A stretch of 64,000 bases of DNA, from positions 1,110 to 65,109 of the forward strand of contig CAYURP010000012.1 of assembly GCA_964447175.1 (NCBI GenBank), in the 5' to 3' direction. The notes under the pieces were generated by a model. The model ran no database searches, had not been told where the DNA came from, and worked only from the letters and a program-made list of their open reading frames with translations. Positions 3,502 to 64,000 of the stretch are shown in pieces (the first letter of the stretch is position 1; each line of letters opens with the position of its first letter). The stretch comes from an uncultured Ignavibacteria bacterium (GTDB lineage Bacteria > Zixibacteria > MSB-5A5 > SM23-73-2). The position numbers were made by a program, and so were the translations under genes.

Positions 3502-6500
3502 TTATGGACGATAGGGGTAACATCCTACACCAAGATTCTGCCACTGCGGATCAGTAAACAGACTCGTTCTCTTGAATAACTGTTCGTATTCCTCGTCAAA
3601 GAACCGGTTCTTGTCAATAGGTGCATCAGGCTTACTTTTGAGAATGTAATTCACCAGAAAGACAACATCATCGATCTTGACCTCGCCATCGCAGTTCACA
3701 TCACCCTGATTGATGAAGGGTAGTGGAGGTGGACCGCTTCTCAGCGTGTAGCCCACTAAGTATACTATGTCAGCTATGTCCAAAAGGCCCGGTGAAGCTA
3801 CGCCAGTACCGAAGTCGCCCACGTCTCCTCTGTAGAAGCCAGCCAATCTCAGTAGCCTGTAGAGTTTGCATCTGTAGGCAGTATAGTCGGTGGACGGAAT
3901 CTGAGTGTCGTACCAGATGAAGTACTCCTGAAGATTCTTCTCTCCCGGAGCCAGGCTGAACTTCTCGGAGTTCAACAGATAACCATAGTCGAAGGTGTCA
4001 GTGTGAGCGGGTGTCTTATCCGGCACAGACCAGTAGGTCATCTCCATCATGAATTTCAGAGAATCATACGGACCGCCAGGAACGAACTCATAGAAGTAGG
4101 AGTTATGATCACCGATATCCATACCCGGAGCGATCTTGCCCAAAGAGGTCGGTGCTAAGGTCACGTAAGCCACCTTGCCTTCCTCAGTGGAGTCATATGC
4201 CCAGTAGGTATTGGTAACCGAATCTCCGCCACCAAAGGAGGTGTTAGTAGGATCGGGCACATTAACATCCCAGTCCATAAACAGTGCCCACTCTAAGTCG
4301 TCTATCTGGGTCTCTCCGGTGTTGGTGATCACAAACTTCTGGATGACCACGTCGCCTTCCGGCTCCAGATAATACACATCTCCACCTGGATCAAAACCGA
4401 CACCCAGCATCTCAATGTCCAGAGGTAGCGCATGACCCGTCACGCTGTGATAGAAGGAAGTCCGGCACTTCTCAAGCAGCACGTCATCATAATACTCATA
4501 ATCGCACACCAAATCACCGTACGGGAAGAACCCGATGTCCTCACCAACAGCAGTTATACCCATGGCCAGATCATCAGCTGAGGTTCCCAAAAGGACGGTT
4601 CCCTCGAACAGGTCATCGGTATAGTCAGGGTAGTACTCCCAGTAGACGAATCCAGGACCCTCTTCTCCGTAGTTGCTCTTGACCATAGCCACGTTCCAGG
4701 AGTCAAGCTGGTCTGAGACAAACGGTTCGGCAGGACAGATCACCACTGCATACTCGATCTCGGTATGCACTGGATACTGAGGAGTAGCTGAGGGTGCCAT
4801 GTAAGGCTCCAGCTCAGGAGTGAAGTTCATTCCGTAGAATAACGGGTCATATACATCATAATCAGGTATGAAGAGAAATCCACCCGGGCTGGGTGAGGGC
4901 CATCCTATCACGTAGTAATCGTGGGAAACGTTGCCCGCATCATAATGAAGTGGTGGATCGGTGTTTTGAGTGTGATCGTGAACATAGAATACACCACCGG
5001 AACTGTCGCCCGGAGTCAGTCCATCACAGAATCCGTTAATGAACGGGTCGCTGAAGCTGAACATGAATTGCTCGATGTTCACTCCCTCCACGTTGACATA
5101 ATGTCCACCCAGACGGTACCAGATTTCCTCTACCTCATCAAAATACCAGAAGCCTAACAGAAGGATCACGTCCTGGGACCGCCTGACCTGATACTCAATA
5201 TCCTCATAGGTGGGCTGAACTATGGTGTTCTCGGTAATCCAGAACCCATGGGCTTCGATCAAGTCCAGTATACACTGCTGCATATCATATACATCGGTTC
5301 CTTCGGGACCAGTGTTCATGCAGGCCGCCAGCTCAGCTATCATAGCCGGCGGGATGGTCGGATCCCAGCCGCCATACCAGTTGCTGATGGAATACCAGGG
5401 GAAACCTCCGGCAAAACACCACCACAGACAGTTGGACAAAGCTGCCGGTCCGCACCAGTTAGGCTCAGCCTGGTTAAAATCAGGTATCCCATCCGGAGCA
5501 TAACCGTAGTCCACCGGCTCAACCAGATAATAAGAACCCCAGGTGGTCTCCGGAGGATCACCGGTAATATCAACTATGCACAGCTCCAGATCCTCTCTAA
5601 CAGGCTCTCTGCACTCCCACTCACCAAAGGAAGCCTTGTGATACCATGCGTCTCTCAAGTCACATTCGTTCTGATCTCTGGTAAAGCCCTCTGCGCGCAA
5701 CACTACACATCCACCATAAACATCAGTTATGGAATAAACGTAAGGAAGTTCAGGACCTTTTATCTCACTGCGGTAATAACCATCGTGAAAACCAGAAATT
5801 GGCGGTGCCTGATCAAAGTATGTGGTAATCCACCAACCATATCTGGTTGTGTCTGGCCCACAGCGTTCCGGATCGGGACCCTCAGTAAAATCATCTGAGT
5901 TTAATAGTTGCCACCAAGCTAAAAATGGACCATGGACGCACGGGCGCTCTTCCTCTGGAATCTCTAAACCCACGAGAAATTGACCAGCCTCATCAAGGTA
6001 TACCCAGGTTCCTTCAGAAGGACTCCACCAATAACCATATGCTGCAACCGCAATGAGCAAGGAGCAGGGCGCAGGAACATTCATCCGAAGGTAGATACCT
6101 GAGACCTCAAAAGGATAGATCGGATAGCCGCATGCACTTATATCTGCATTAAGTTGTGGGTCCTGACGAACAAAGTATTCCACATACGAACCGCAACAGT
6201 TCAACCGATCATCGAAATAGTCTGGCCAGGGCTGATAGTAGCAACAGGGGTCAAGATTAGGATCTATCAGACACTCCGTAAGCGGCGCCTCCTCCTGCGT
6301 TCCATATTGGTTGGCATATTTGATTGTACCTTCTACATCCGCAAGTTTCACTTGGAGATCCTCAGGTGAAATACCAGAATAGGATCTAGTTATCACATCC
6401 GAATAATATGAAGAGGGAATCTCCCGCTTTGCAACCGTAGGCGTCTCAGCAAGCTTGTCTTGTCCTCTGGGGATTATTTTGCTGGGGGTCGCTTCCTTGT

Positions 6501-11040: not shown

Positions 11041-11075
11041 TAATTACCAACAACTAACAACCAATAACCAAAAAC
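11041..11075 (-). repeat. 7-bp tandem array, 5 units (TAATTAC CAACAAC TAACAAC CAATAAC CAAAAAC on + strand)
   Basis: Read directly; starts at the ccmF stop codon. Confidence 0.8.
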
Positions 11076-14333: not shown

Positions 14334-14346
14334 TTTTCTGATAATC

Positions 14347-14374
14347 TAAAAACTAACAACTAATTACTAACAAC
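14347..14374 (-). repeat. 7-bp tandem array, 4 units (TAAAAAC TAACAAC TAATTAC TAACAAC on + strand)
   Basis: Read directly. Between the ccmB stop and ccmC start; same unit variants as the ccmF array. Confidence 0.8.
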
Positions 14375-14377
14375 TGT

Positions 14378-42193: not shown

Positions 42194-42214
42194 CTCTCTA
42201 CTCTCTACTCTTCA
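42194..42214 (-). repeat. 7-bp tandem array, 3 units (CTCTCTA CTCTCTA CTCTTCA), same family as 214-290
   Basis: Overlaps the TolC-family stop codon (42205-42207). Confidence 0.6.
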
Positions 42215-60345: not shown

Positions 60346-60415
60346 GGTGGGATAAATTCCCACCTCTATGAAATAATAAACTAACTAACATATGCAGGGC
60401 ATTTAGCCCTGCATA
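60346..60415. repeat. Two REP-like hairpins between panD and the nucleotidyltransferase
   Basis: GGTGGGA-TAAAT-TCCCACC-TCTAT; TATGCAGGGC-ATTTA-GCCCTGCATA. Confidence 0.65.
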
Positions 60416-60433: not shown

Positions 60434-60793
60434 TCAAAAATTCTTTTTGACAATTTTATTCTTCTGATCCAGAAAAATTAACCTGGGTTGGTGTTTTCTG
60501 GCATCCTCCTGATCCAGCATACAATAGGAGATGATGATAATGACATCCCCCACCTGGCCTAACCGGGCAGCAGGACCATTTAAACATATGGTTCCGGATC
60601 CTGGTTTTCCCACCAGAACGTATGTTTCAAACCTGGCTCCGTTGTTCTGGTTTAAAACATGAACCAGTTCATAGGGCAAAAGGTTTGCCTCTTTCATTAT
60701 ATCTTCGTCAATGGTTATGCTCCCCTCATAATTCAAAACTGCCTCAGTAACTACGGCTTTATGAATCTTAGATTTGCAAACATTAACCAGCAT
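60434..60793 (-). CDS. panD: Aspartate 1-decarboxylase
   Basis: [16 protein letters not shown] (G-S cleavage), [15 protein letters not shown]. Confidence 0.98.
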
Positions 60794-60805: not shown

Positions 60806-61651
60806 TTACACTTTTATATTGATGTTATCAATCAATCTCGTTTTACCAATTTTTACTGCTAAGGAAATTAAAATGTTCCCCTTTATTTTCCTCAAAGTCT
60901 CAAGCGTTTCCGAGTCATTTATGGATATATAATCAATTCTTGCCTGGGGTTGCTTTTGAATGAGTTTTTTCATTTTTTCTATTATCTTTTCTGAATCCCT
61001 TTCTCCAGATTTTATCAGCTTTTTGGCTAAATTCAGGGATTGATATAAGGACAAAGCCTGAATTCTTTCTTCATCTGAAAGATACGAATTCCTGGAACTT
61101 AACGCAAGCCCGGATTTCTCCCTTATTGTAGGAGCGACAATGATCTTAACTGGAAAGTTCAGGTCTTTTACCATTCTTCTTATTACAACTGCTTGCTGAA
61201 AATCCTTCTGTCCGAAAACAGCTACATCCGGCATGACTATGTTGAAAAGCTTTGCCACGATTGTGGTCACCCCTTTGAAATGCCCCGGACGAAAAGCACC
61301 CTCTAAAATCTTGGTGGATTTTTCCACCTCTACGTAGGTCTCATATACTTCAGGATACATTTCCTTTATCTGCGGGTAAAACAGATAATCACAGCCTGAT
61401 TCCTTTAGAAGTCTTTTGTCCATTTTTAAATTCCTGGGATATCTTTTGAAATCCTCCTGGGGACCGAACTGGGTGGGATTGACAAACAAGCTAACCACTA
61501 AAACATCTGACTTTTTTTTAGCCACCCCCATCAGGCTTAAATGCCCTTGATGCAGATAGCCCATGGTGGGCACAAAACCGATGGTTTTCCCCTTTTTTTT
61601 CAGACTTGTGCAAATTCTTTGCATCTCTTTTGGAGACCTGAAGATTTTCAT
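60806..61651 (-). CDS. panC: Pantoate--beta-alanine ligase
   Basis: VPTMGYLHQGH, FVNPTQF, RPGHF.GV, FGQKDFQQ, GLALSSRN, RLIDN. Confidence 0.98.
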   Translation of the reverse strand: MKIFRSPKEMQRICTSLKKKGKTIGFVPTMGYLHQGHLSLMGVAKKKSDVLVVSLFVNPTQFGPQEDFKRYPRNLKMDKRLLKESGCDYLFYPQIKEMYPEVYETYVEVEKSTKILEGAFRPGHFKGVTTIVAKLFNIVMPDVAVFGQKDFQQAVVIRRMVKDLNFPVKIIVAPTIREKSGLALSSRNSYLSDEERIQALSLYQSLNLAKKLIKSGERDSEKIIEKMKKLIQKQPQARIDYISINDSETLETLRKIKGNILISLAVKIGKTRLIDNINIKV

Positions 61652-61711
61652 TTTGACTAATTAAGAATTCAAAAAGCAAAATTTAAAATTGCAATTAAAA
61701 AATAAAAATTA
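61652..61711 (-). repeat. Degenerate 7-bp array, T-rich on the coding strand, after the four-helix-bundle stop
   Basis: Coding strand TAATTTT TATTTTT TAATTGC AATTTTA AATTTTG CTTTTTG AATTCTT AATTAGT. Confidence 0.7.
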
Positions 61712-62092
61712 TTATTTCTTCCCTTTGAGCTTGAGAGTACTTGAAGCGAGAATATTAGCCAATTCTATGGTCTCATCGAGCAAAGGATTTACCGATTCTT
61801 TTGCTGCCTTATTAGAGTCCCTTAAAAGACCCGGCCAGAACTTGCTCTCATTAGTTGATTTGAGAGAGTGATTAAGGAAGTTAGTAAATTCTTTTTTTGA
61901 GCTGGCAGCCTGAGCTTCAACTATATTTGCGCCTATGCCGGTGGCACTGCGAATTAGTTGCTTAGCGATAACATGACAAGATAAATCATTCTTTGCTAAT
62001 TGATCCAGTAATTTGATAATATTTAAAGCATATAAATAAGCCCTCTTTTTTACATCAATTTTAGATTTTAAATTGTAATTTTTCATTTTCAT
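61712..62092 (-). CDS. Four-helix-bundle protein (TIGR02436 / 23S rRNA IVP family)
   Basis: RAY.YAL.II, IAKQLIRSATGIGANIVEA, S.KEF..FL..S.KS..ES.FW. Confidence 0.92.
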   Translation of the reverse strand: MKMKNYNLKSKIDVKKRAYLYALNIIKLLDQLAKNDLSCHVIAKQLIRSATGIGANIVEAQAASSKKEFTNFLNHSLKSTNESKFWPGLLRDSNKAAKESVNPLLDETIELANILASSTLKLKGKK

Positions 62093-62109
62093 TTTTTATT
62101 TTTTAATTT
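62054..62109 (-). repeat. Degenerate 7-bp array, A-rich on the coding strand, from the panB stop into the four-helix-bundle N-terminus
   Basis: Coding strand AAATTAA AAAATAA AAAATGA AAATGAA AAATTAC AATTTAA AATCTAA AATTGAT. Confidence 0.75.
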
Positions 62110-62913
62110 CTAATAGCTTTCTTCTTCTGAGGGAAATTCGCCAGATTTAACATCCTCTAAATACTTCTGGCAGGCTTTTTGAATTTCCTCTCCCAGGTTA
62201 GCATAGCGTCTGACGAATTTGGGTTTGAAATCTTCGAAAAGTCCTAAAATATCGTTTACCACCAAAACCTGTCCATCACAGAATTTACCTGCGCCTATTC
62301 CTATTGTGGGAATTTTAAGGGACTGGCTAATGGTTTTTGCTAAGTCTGAAGGTATCGCCTCCAGAACAATGGAAAAGCAGCCTGCATCTTCCAATGCTTG
62401 CGCACTTTTGATCAGATAATCCTTGTTTTTTTGATCTTTTCCCTGAACTGAAAAACTGCCGAATTTATGTATGGATTGGGGGGTCAAACCTATATGCCCC
62501 ATCACCGGTATGCCAGCCTGCACTACCCCTTCCACGATTCTTATCATTTCCGTCCCGCCTTCTATTTTCACCCCTTGGGCTCCCCCCTCCTTTAAAAATC
62601 TGCCGGCATTTCTTATGGCTTCGGCTTCAGATGTTTGGTAGGATAAAAACGGCATATCCCCCACTATCATGGCCCTTTCACAGGCAGAGGATACTGCCTG
62701 GGTATGATAGATCATCTGCTCCATCCCTATGGACAGGGTGGTTTTCGCCCCATAAAAGACCATATTAACCGAATCGCCTACCAGTATGCAATCAATTCCG
62801 ATCTTATCCATTATTCTGGCAGTGAAGAAATCATATGCAGTTAAAACAGCGATTTTCTCTTGGGATTTTTTCATCCGGAGAAAGGTCTTTACTGTGACTT
62901 TTTCCTTGGACAT
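62110..62913 (-). CDS. panB: 3-methyl-2-oxobutanoate hydroxymethyltransferase
   Basis: LTAYD, ILVGDS, GDMPFLSY, VKIEGG, GHIGLTPQS, IGIGAG..CDGQVLV. Confidence 0.98.
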   Translation of the reverse strand: MSKEKVTVKTFLRMKKSQEKIAVLTAYDFFTARIMDKIGIDCILVGDSVNMVFYGAKTTLSIGMEQMIYHTQAVSSACERAMIVGDMPFLSYQTSEAEAIRNAGRFLKEGGAQGVKIEGGTEMIRIVEGVVQAGIPVMGHIGLTPQSIHKFGSFSVQGKDQKNKDYLIKSAQALEDAGCFSIVLEAIPSDLAKTISQSLKIPTIGIGAGKFCDGQVLVVNDILGLFEDFKPKFVRRYANLGEEIQKACQKYLEDVKSGEFPSEEESY

Positions 62914-62958: not shown

Positions 62959-63591
62959 CTACCCCCGGGTGTAGTATTTGGTGCCGGTGTGTGGATTTTC
63001 TATCTTCTCTAATAGATCTTTTAAGTCCGCCTCATTGTTTAAAAAGTCGAAATTATCCGTGTTTATCACCAGAAGAGGTGTCTCTTTATAATGGAAGAAG
63101 TATCGGTTATAGGCTTCATTTAAATCCAGAAGATAGTTAAGCTCAATATCCTTTTCGTATTCCTTCCCCCTCTGTTTTATTTTTTGAAAAAGCTTCTCCG
63201 GTGTGCTCTGGAGATAGATTACCAGATCGGGTCTGGGTATATTCCTTTCCAGATATGAAATCAATTTCACGTAAAGATGAAATTCCTTCTCATCCAGAAC
63301 CACCGAGGCGAAAATCTTGTCTTTTGCAAAAAGATAATCCGATACGATCCTTTGAGTAAAAAGATCATATTCTAAAAGCTCCTGTTGTTGTCTGAATCGG
63401 GACAAAAGGAAAAATATCTGGGTCTGAAAAGCACGCCTTTCCCGGTCTTTGTAGAAATCTTTGAGAAAGGGATTGCCCTCGGAATCCTCCAGAATCAACC
63501 TGGCTGGTAATCTATCAGCCAGAAGCTCAGCCAAAGCCGTTTTCCCCACACCTATTAACCCTTCGATTACTATATAATTGTTCTCCTTCAT
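62959..63591 (-). CDS. Deoxynucleoside kinase
   Basis: IEGLIGVGKT, NPFL..FY, Q.FFL..R, PRPDLVIYL, R...YE. Confidence 0.93.
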   Translation of the reverse strand: MKENNYIVIEGLIGVGKTALAELLADRLPARLILEDSEGNPFLKDFYKDRERRAFQTQIFFLLSRFRQQQELLEYDLFTQRIVSDYLFAKDKIFASVVLDEKEFHLYVKLISYLERNIPRPDLVIYLQSTPEKLFQKIKQRGKEYEKDIELNYLLDLNEAYNRYFFHYKETPLLVINTDNFDFLNNEADLKDLLEKIENPHTGTKYYTRG

Positions 63592-63597
63592 ATTATT

Positions 63598-64000
63598 TCA
63601 ATTCCTGAAAAGCTCAACCTTTGAATCTTGCTTTAAATTCTTTAGCAACTCAGAGATGGTCTGTTGCTTCAGGGGATGGATTTTATCCTTTGCGATTTCA
63701 GCTAAAGGGATTAATACGAATTTTCGGAGATGCATCTGAGGATGGGGTAAGGTTAACTCAGAGGAATTGATAATTTGTTCATCATAAAGCAGAAGATCCA
63801 GGTCGATGTTTCTGGGTCCCCATTTCTTCTCCCTTTTTCGTCCCATTTTCCTCTCAATGTCCTGAAGAAAACGGAGCAGCTCAAAGGGGGAAATTGCCGT
63901 TTCAACCTCCAGCACCATATTCAAAAAAAGGGGCTGGTCATTTATGCCCACAGGTTCTGTTTGATAGACAGAGGAGCGTTTTAATACTTTAACCATAGAA
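63598..64000 (-). CDS. folK: 2-amino-4-hydroxy-6-hydroxymethyldihydropteridine diphosphokinase (5' end outside window)
   Basis: SSVYQTEP, FLN.V, E...GR.R..KWGPRNIDLDLL, LPHP.MH.R.FVL.PL. Confidence 0.95.
   Translation of the reverse strand, partial: SMVKVLKRSSVYQTEPVGINDQPLFLNMVLEVETAISPFELLRFLQDIERKMGRKREKKWGPRNIDLDLLLYDEQIINSSELTLPHPQMHLRKFVLIPLAEIAKDKIHPLKQQTISELLKNLKQDSKVELFRN

Follow-up and report, generated by a model that had tools for sequence, protein, structure and literature searches.

Why is panB separated from panC by 458 nt on a contig of an uncultured Ignavibacteria bacterium, and what is the small gene that this spacer holds? The spacer (61652-62109) lies in a stretch of 64,000 nt, here referred to as the window (positions 1,110 to 65,109 of contig CAYURP010000012.1, assembly GCA_964447175.1, assigned to the Zixibacteria in GTDB), and contains a gene for a four-helix-bundle (4HB) protein between two arrays of period 7. 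An earlier reading of the letters alone (the sequence-only reading) had described an A-rich heptamer array in front of this gene and a U-rich one behind it and had likened the layout to the intervening sequences (IVSs) of 23S rRNA; coordinates and lag-7 tests agree with that description. Our analysis demonstrated that the three-part cassette of heptamer arm, PF05635-type open reading frame (ORF) and inverse arm, about 450 nt in length, is, close to certainly, an architecture common to the entire protein family. Within this class, the panB-panC copy is old and ordinary, and the regularity at the level of the class is the interesting result. The earlier interpretation is thus supported in part: the architecture of the cassette is IVS-like and general, while current mobility is not supported, and a spread through the arrays and processing of the RNA remain proposals.

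In the sense direction, the units of the 5' arm read TAGAAAT TAAAAAA TAAAAAA TGAAAAT GAAAAAT TACAATT TAAAATC TAAAATT, and the first triplet of this array is the TAG stop codon of panB (62110-62112). A period of 7 is called by Tandem Repeats Finder at 62078-62103, and Smith-Waterman alignment places the arm at -21 to +30 of the 4HB gene. Similarly, the first unit of the 3' array (TAATAAT TTTTATT TTTTAAT TGCAATT TTAAATT TTGCTTT TTGAATT CTTAATT) contains the stop codon of the 4HB gene itself; the aligned 3' arm starts 2 nt past this stop and ends 8 nt upstream of the panC ATG. Lag 7 is the maximum in both arrays, with an identity of 0.76 for the 5' one (P < 2e-4) and of 0.61 for the 3' one (P = 8e-4). 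Both arms consist of at least three tandem 7-nt units, are intergenic and lie near the end of the upstream ORF, as is characteristic of repeats of the short tandemly repeated repetitive (STRR) type. The longest exact inverted block that they share measures 16 nt (Table 1), where shuffles of matched composition average about 9 (P = 0.002-0.01), and a block of 10 nt, AATTTAAAAT / ATTTTAAATT, is located at 61680-61689 / 62065-62074. These are the two blocks which the sequence-only reading had listed, and they do stand in swapped order. As the arms are repeats that can pair in several registers, this order is readily explained. A pseudoknot formed from the swapped blocks was considered and rejected, since the blocks represent different registers in which the repeats can pair; both arms are covered by a nested alignment (Table 1). 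Judged from the sequence, the complementary termini would be able to enclose the rest of the element as a stem, as they do in an IVS. Among orthologues both arms, including the non-coding 3' arm, are conserved above the level of synonymous sites.

To follow the architecture through the family, homologues with their DNA were gathered from assemblies and from one genome per GTDB species, yielding 91 non-redundant genes (individual loci are cited by L numbers). These stem from Zixibacteria, Ignavibacteria, Gammaproteobacteria, Omnitrophota, Pirellulales, Dehalococcoidia, Atribacteria/Caldatribacteriota, Actinomycetota, Verrucomicrobia, WOR-3, many Patescibacteria, Bacteroidota and one Micrarchaeon, and the loci thus span more than ten bacterial phyla and one archaeon. 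Lag 7 was the best lag in 92% of the 5' flanks and 89% of the 3' flanks, as opposed to 9.5% of 294 control windows taken from the same loci. Flanking inverted period-7 arrays, for which the sequence-only reading had proposed to search in other family members, are therefore general. The arms of each copy, moreover, match each other specifically: the longest exact inverted block had a median length of 12 nt between the arms of one locus and 8 nt between arms of different loci (P = 5e-20), and the unit consensus of the 5' arm agreed with that of the reverse-complemented 3' arm, with at most one mismatch, in 61/91 own pairs versus 331/910 cross-locus pairs (P = 3e-8). A typical arm is about 50 nt long, comprises about seven units and is about 79% complementary to its partner, and a median of 2 nt separates the stop codon from the 3' arm. 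The commonest unit is A4-5N2-3, and individual loci vary, with units such as AAAACCT (L005), GTAAAAC and CCTAAAT (L008) or GGATAGT (a Flavobacterium). Long, nearly perfect stems occur in L035 (about 35 bp) and in the archaeal L075 (66 nt). The latter copy, at 2141-2521 in a metagenome-assembled genome (MAG) of a Micrarchaeia archaeon, is built of AAAGTTC/AAAGTTA units and would, if the binning is right, represent an occurrence across domains. The A-rich arm is located upstream in 83/91 loci (P = 8e-17), and likewise in 35/43 loci in which the arm is wholly non-coding. Arms have a GC content of about 20% even in hosts at 63% GC, and that of the ORF tracks the host (slope 0.73, r = 0.84).

These data bear on the view that the arrays are plain slippage microsatellites with no tie to the gene, whose complementarity merely follows from A-rich sequence upstream and T-rich sequence downstream. 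According to the accessible portions of PMC4692102 and PMC4679880, heptamer simple sequence repeats are over-represented in bacterial intergenic regions, just past the upstream ORF, and in the window taken by itself a shuffled flank allows pairing as good as that of the actual arms, both of which would fit slippage. However, arrays are present on both sides in about 90% of the 4HB genes and in about 1-10% of the control windows, arms of one locus match better than those of different loci at both the unit and the block level, and arm conservation among orthologues exceeds that of synonymous sites. The comparisons of own with cross-locus arms largely refute an origin by slippage alone, and we regard it as very improbable.

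The cassettes live mainly inside ordinary operons. They are co-oriented with the upstream gene in 80/84 cases and with the downstream gene in 80/84, and both neighbours are co-oriented in 70/77, compared to about 76% expected (P = 0.002). A median of 0.5 nt lies between the upstream stop codon and the 5' arm, and one of 5 nt between the 3' arm and the start of the downstream gene; the cassette accordingly fills the gap between the stop of one neighbour and the start of the next almost exactly. The host junctions are unrelated to each other and include panB|panC, the split halves of methionine synthase, both sides of metK, pilin-like genes, and sites before ligA and before a gene for a nucleoside triphosphate (NTP) transferase, while none of 16 loci with atypical neighbours (0/16) was located in rRNA. 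The cassettes contain no transposase, in line with the earlier suggestion of a transposase-free element at operon junctions. Several Patescibacteria contigs (L070 of Saccharibacteria, L008, L012, L042, L062 and L093) carry two to three divergent cassettes within 2-5 kb, which is very dense for genomes of this small size; protein identities among these cassettes are 30-50%.

The gene product was assigned to its family by profile: the ORF from the first ATG (61712-62092) matches TIGR02436 with 1.2e-20 (73.8 bits, cut-off 24) and PF05635 with 5.8e-19 (68.7 bits, cut-off 33.8). The start at 62092, as assumed by the sequence-only reading, had to be given up, as this ATG sits in a window-specific 6-nt unit that is absent in the orthologues; it is the second ATG, at 62086, that is conserved as the start (protein MKNYNL...). 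The unit in question, ATGAAA at 62087-62092 in the 5' array, supplies a further in-frame ATG, two codons ahead of the conserved one, and breaks the period of 7 once. The AlphaFold2 monomer model (pLDDT 88) has four helices at residues 6-28, 35-59, 64-90 and 96-120 and a disordered stretch at residues 1-7 in a Lys/Asn-rich N-terminal tail. The best Foldseek matches of the model are 2RLD (E = 2e-6, TM 0.81-0.89) and 2GSC (TM about 0.8), followed by Avd of the diversity-generating retroelements (DGRs; 4DWL and 8UB7, TM 0.7-0.8), and a search of the profile against the PDB returned 2RLD at 6.5e-25. The model thus predicts an up-down four-helix bundle as in 2RLD and 2GSC, and profiles, model and Foldseek matches together confirm both the family assignment and the relation to Avd that had been put forward earlier. 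2RLD, from Bacteroides thetaiotaomicron, has five chains in the PDB, and 2GSC, from Xanthomonas campestris, is described as a homopentamer (PMC4990558); both bacteria can be cultured and encode one or more members of the family. In the motif RxxxSxxxNxxE, given as conserved in PF05635 in the part of PMC3936711 available to us, residues R46, N54 and E57 are invariant in both homologue alignments, and position 50 is a serine in most relatives and a glycine in the window protein and in L001. Pairwise dN/dS of the 4HB gene among orthologues is 0.05-0.16 at dS 0.5-1.2, similar to panC; the protein is under purifying selection. No paralogue was found among the nine other small ORFs (91-149 amino acids) of the window, and PADLOC and PHROGs returned no match, so that an annotation as defence or phage protein is without support. 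The family is large: a search starting from this one sequence reaches 4,065 clusters at 50% identity and E ≤ 1e-3, and 421 at E ≤ 1e-10.

A precedent for the layout is provided by the ORF-bearing IVSs of 23S rRNA, which are known from Coxiella burnetii, Leptospira and others (PMC4990558); in bacteria of the Candidate Phyla Radiation, PF05635 ORFs have been described within insertions in 16S and 23S rRNA (bioRxiv 10.1101/2024.02.27.582315). The Coxiella IVS is 428-444 nt long, carries (GACAGAT)3 directly upstream of the S23p start, and is closed by a 28-bp terminal stem with one mismatch and one bulge; beside this stem, RNase III makes the 5' cut at the first repeat (PMC4990558). Our cassettes resemble these elements in several respects: a PF05635 protein is encoded in the loop, the overall size is similar (about 450 nt), terminal inverted repeats bracket the ORF, the unit lacks convincing transcription signals and would be read with the host transcript, and there are decaying as well as ORF-less versions. 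In particular, the tandem heptamers in the RNase III stem of the Coxiella element match what we observe, and on this point the likeness to 23S IVSs noted previously is well founded. The cassettes differ in that the host is a junction in a protein-coding operon instead of an rRNA helix, in that the stems are longer and far less perfect (about 79%) than that of Coxiella, and in the purifying selection on the 4HB protein, whereas S23p of Coxiella is decaying and apparently not made (PMC4990558). Furthermore, RNase III cleavage has been established experimentally for the Coxiella IVS and is putative for the cassette.

It might therefore be hypothesized that the cassette is the operon-borne counterpart of the ORF-bearing rRNA IVS, with arms that pair in the transcript and loop out the ORF, a model to which we would give about an even chance. 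The cassette would be transcribed as part of the pan operon mRNA, and its two arms would pair into a long, imperfect A-U stem. Such a stem would put the panB stop beside the panC start, and the insert might be tolerated much as an IVS stem preserves the rRNA helix, making the insertion nearly neutral as far as panB and panC are expressed in a coupled manner. Translation of the 4HB gene starts within the arm, 21 nt past the stop codon of panB; ribosomes terminating at panB might unwind the stem at its base and uncover this buried start codon, by which 4HB translation would be coupled to that of panB. By analogy with rRNA, RNase III may cut the stem. Finally, the presumably pentameric, Avd-like 4HB protein would most likely bind nucleic acid and perhaps its own heptamer arms; binding of heptamer nucleic acid by an Avd-like pentamer would be the most economical guess, and arm binding is the most speculative step of the model. 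A role at the RNA level is favoured by the strict A-rich-upstream polarity, the co-orientation with the neighbours, the lack of a convincing promoter or terminator internal to the cassette, the low GC content of the arms, the consensus stem and the Coxiella precedent. The consensus stem of the orthologues has 32 nested pairs and runs across the 4HB start codon, with one compensatory change, 12 cells kept via G·U and six broken, and the long-range stem is present in the minimum free energy (MFE) fold of the window transcript as well as in the centroid fold.

Several observations weigh against this model. An excess of G·U over A·C mismatches, as expected for pairs maintained in RNA, is absent (151 versus 146 overall, 36 versus 28 inside helices), transversions dominate the arm mismatches, and the arms, only about 79% complementary, are almost purely A-U, with short nested uninterrupted helices at best. 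The fold of the window has a z-score of -1.35, which is not significant. The expected number of long-range pairs is 23.8 compared to 17.4 ± 7.9 with a shuffled 3' flank, indicating that A-rich/U-rich composition alone gives most of the pairing. In addition, the AT-rich 5' arm contains weak promoter-like matches, which might represent an internal promoter. Thus, of the earlier proposal that the transcript pairs its arms, the long-range stem stands in both predicted folds, while a wobble signature and an advantage over shuffles do not. The pairing is largely a matter of composition, to which locus-specific matching adds, and it is not clearly kept by selection at the RNA level; pairing of the arms in RNA is plausible.

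The strand symmetry of the mismatches (G·U = A·C) is what inverted repeats in DNA would predict, and the arms might instead act at the DNA level, as terminal inverted repeats or as the hairpin or cruciform of a non-autonomous mobile cassette, with the RNA stem being incidental. Such a cassette would be moved, now or once, by an enzyme encoded elsewhere or spread by recombination between heptamer arrays. Consistent with this, proteins sharing 65-78% identity are encoded at junctions that are not related to each other and by members of different phyla (a split metH, metK, pilin genes, the NTP-transferase gene), and in Xanthomonas, as reported in the accessible part of PMC4692102, heptamer arrays also occur as 70-75 inverted pairs. 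Decayed and ORF-less versions exist as well. One locus (L059, 1272-1774) has inverted heptamer arrays 426 nt apart around a truncated PF05635-type ORF of 83 amino acids, and is apparently a decaying cassette; this ORF belongs to a different subfamily (...QMRRAVVSLTSNIAEG...), and the same 5-kb locus holds two intact copies. An inverted array pair without an ORF is present in L071, and short ORF-less inverted heptamer hairpins were found in L023, L061, L119, L046 and L107. The last, GACAGAC ... GTCTGTT at about 1077-1140, belongs to an unrelated lineage, where it is located between panB and panC. Its unit GACAGAC resembles the Coxiella IVS heptamer GACAGAT.

The history of the panB-panC copy, in contrast, argues against movement. 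A 4HB gene is found at the same junction in nine related Zixibacteria-type loci (five distinct sequences), with spacers of 457-460 nt and identities of 84-94% (PanB), 76-80% (PanC) and 75-86% (4HB protein); among named records, L020, a MAG of Candidatus Zixiibacteriota, is the closest. Because of the shared junction, the dN/dS of 0.05-0.16 and the conservation of the arms above synonymous sites, the insert is an old, vertically inherited one that encodes a functional protein, and not the result of a recent transposition. The sequence-only reading had seen in it a spreading element and had itself named stable presence at this site across the lineage as contrary to that idea; the gene is stably present and under purifying selection. 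Cassettes on one contig share only 30-50% protein identity, hence there is no sign of recent transposition or of an intragenomic burst, and the latter was rejected. A recent transfer was likewise considered from GC content, which gave no evidence for it, the GC of the ORF having ameliorated to that of the host. Several near-identical copies per genome, as would be typical of miniature inverted-repeat transposable elements with terminal inverted repeats, were not observed among cassettes sharing a contig, and inspection by eye of the orthologous junctions, whose array boundaries are fuzzy, revealed no direct repeat common to them that would qualify as a target-site duplication. A metagenome scan with PanC, which reached only ≤61% identity, yielded no empty panB-panC site in close relatives; its 80 loci have no 4HB gene, and their longer spacers hold unrelated small ORFs or, once, an ORF-less heptamer hairpin. 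Spread across phyla must have happened, and there is no sign of recent activity. The missing transposase, the lack of a consistent target-site duplication to the eye among orthologues, the divergence of same-contig copies, the amelioration, the stability of the panB-panC copy over dS 0.5-1.2, and the A-rich arm upstream in 91% together with 95% co-orientation, which would be unexpected for a purely double-stranded repeat, render the DNA-level explanation rather unlikely in our view.

Heptamer arrays also occur singly. The window has four further period-7 arrays (214-288, 11046-11075, 14346-14375 and 42194-42211), compared to about 0.05 per 64 kb expected under a Markov null; all are intergenic, and each abuts the stop codon of a minus-strand gene. 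The sequence-only reading had counted them as empty sites of the same element. The arrays are indeed real and intergenic; however, in their units they bear no relation to the A/T-rich arms, and an inverted partner is absent, so that their link to the cassette is weak. The longest, at 214-288, has about ten sense units (AAGAGTA/GAGAGTA) and fills the spacer from the stop of the minus-strand gene at 287-1984 to the next ATG near 217; the units at its end, GAAGAGG, resemble Shine-Dalgarno-like motifs in repetition. The other three are shorter, with units of the GTTGTTA/GTTAGTA or GAGAGTA type. Solo arrays reach a density of 11.2 per 100 kb in 4HB-bearing loci versus 3.2 in panC-selected contigs, a 3.5-fold difference that is uncontrolled for taxon and composition, and their link to 4HB cassettes is only suggestive.

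This difference, as far as it goes, would fit a function of the arrays as binding sites for the 4HB pentamer or another single-strand binder, serving regulation of the cassette itself or of its neighbours, with complementarity being secondary. The family-wide unit consensus A4-5N2-3, arms that stay AT-rich against the GC content of the host, the conservation of the 3' arm despite its being non-coding, the disordered Lys/Asn-rich tail, and the example of Avd, a nucleic-acid-binding pentamer in the DGR ribonucleoprotein (8UB7), are all in agreement with such a role. The two arms are, however, opposite in sequence on one strand, so that a single-strand binder could read only one of them, and the complementarity of own arms is specific beyond the shared consensus. 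Since the solo arrays of the window also consist of unrelated units and their density was compared across taxa and compositions that may differ, we consider it unlikely that the arrays are primarily binding sites.

A more far-reaching variant holds the cassette to be an autonomous, transposase-free selfish element, whose protein recognises heptamer arrays and helps to create or spread them, leaving orphan arrays and ORF-less hairpins as footprints. As one example of a route, a hairpin RNA released by RNase III might be copied with the 4HB protein as an Avd-like cofactor for nucleic-acid synthesis. If true, the rRNA IVS elements and the overabundance of 7-nt repeats among bacteria would both be accounted for. 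Yet a spread via heptamer arrays, as the sequence-only reading had envisaged, is pure conjecture, and we deem a selfish element of this kind distinctly improbable.

Independent of the mechanism, two old puzzles may be one, namely the nature of the ORF-bearing rRNA IVS with its S23p protein and the excess of 7-nt repeats between bacterial genes. The IVS-type unit is not a peculiarity of rRNA; it is operon-borne in more than ten bacterial phyla and an archaeon, and selection maintains its protein. For most members of the family, the Pfam name "23S rRNA-intervening sequence protein" is likely misleading. Intergenic heptamer repeats have been described as GGGAATC in Xanthomonas, with the inverted pairs mentioned above, and as GGGGAYT in Nostoc and cyanobacterial STRRs (in the accessible text of PMC4692102), as TAACTGA in Beggiatoaceae (likewise in that of PMC4679880), and as heptanucleotide elements in Geobacter (in that of PMC2700814). 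As portrayed in these portions, STRR-type repeats share with our arrays the tandem 7-nt units, the intergenic position, the start near the end of the upstream ORF and the occurrence mostly between co-oriented genes; some form inverted pairs capable of hairpins, and their origin and function are described there as unexplained. They differ from the matched inverted pair around one gene family reported here, whose units are A4-5N2-3 and not G-rich. In these portions the repeats are not brought together with PF05635 genes. The term "S23" does not occur in the accessible text of PMC4679880, PMC2700814 and PMC4692102, nor does "four helix" in that of the first two, and the full-text literature, in which subscription journals are thinly covered and an earlier description is possible, yielded no prior link of non-rRNA PF05635 genes to flanking inverted heptamer arrays.

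Avd, a pentameric nucleic-acid-binding scaffold, belongs to the same superfamily of four-helix bundles, but sequence identity to it is about 12%, and the closest solved relatives, 2RLD and 2GSC, are not from DGRs. No reverse transcriptase and no template or variable repeat is present in the operon (neighbours folK, dNK, panB, panC and panD), the part of the window to which the scan for a reverse transcriptase was confined. In a cas operon, a PF05635 gene between cmr3 and cmr2 has been read as having a possible Cas-associated function, in the portion of PMC3936711 at hand. Like our cassettes, such genes are wedged between co-oriented operon genes; that portion gives the genomic context and does not describe flanking repeats. 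Our data suggest that the cas operon is simply a host site for the cassette.

The genes around the cassette form the string folK-dNK-panB-4HB-panC-panD, all on the minus strand, at this end of the window (Table 1). The hairpin behind panD is the sole terminator-like site downstream of the cassette in the string from folK to panD. The window is without rRNA, and Rfam and tRNA scans of it gave no match.

Table 1. Positions of the cassette, its parts and the surrounding genes in the window.
Feature	Positions	Strand	Remarks
5' arm, A-rich	62057-62107	minus	about 8 degenerate heptamers; includes 4HB start codon and codons 1-10
3' arm, U-rich	61659-61710	minus	about 8 heptamers (xxxxATT units); reverse complement of 5' arm, 40/52 positions complementary in nested alignment
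Perfect inverted-repeat block, 16 nt	61693-61708		partner 62093-62108
4HB gene	61712-62086	minus	124 amino acids; PF05635 / TIGR02436, S23p/Avd-like; conserved ATG at 62086
folK	63598-63996	minus	
dNK-family kinase	62959-63591	minus	
panB, 3-methyl-2-oxobutanoate hydroxymethyltransferase	62110-62913	minus	TIGR00222, 4e-102, equivalog-level
panC, pantoate-beta-alanine ligase	60806-61651	minus	downstream of cassette; TIGR00018, 5e-103, equivalog-level
panD	60434-60793	minus	equivalog-level match
Terminator-like hairpin after panD	60391-60415	minus	

Other insertions were noted in and around pan operons. Unrelated small ORFs lie between panB and panC in L111, L139 and L159. The orthologous operon of L004 has an extra ORF of 282 amino acids, without a Pfam match, between panC and panD (4356-5204), showing that this operon has taken other insertions too. 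Y1 transposases act on single-stranded DNA hairpins, and in a related genome (L182, from 3375) a gene for such an enzyme (IS200/IS605-type, PF01797) is inserted directly after panD.

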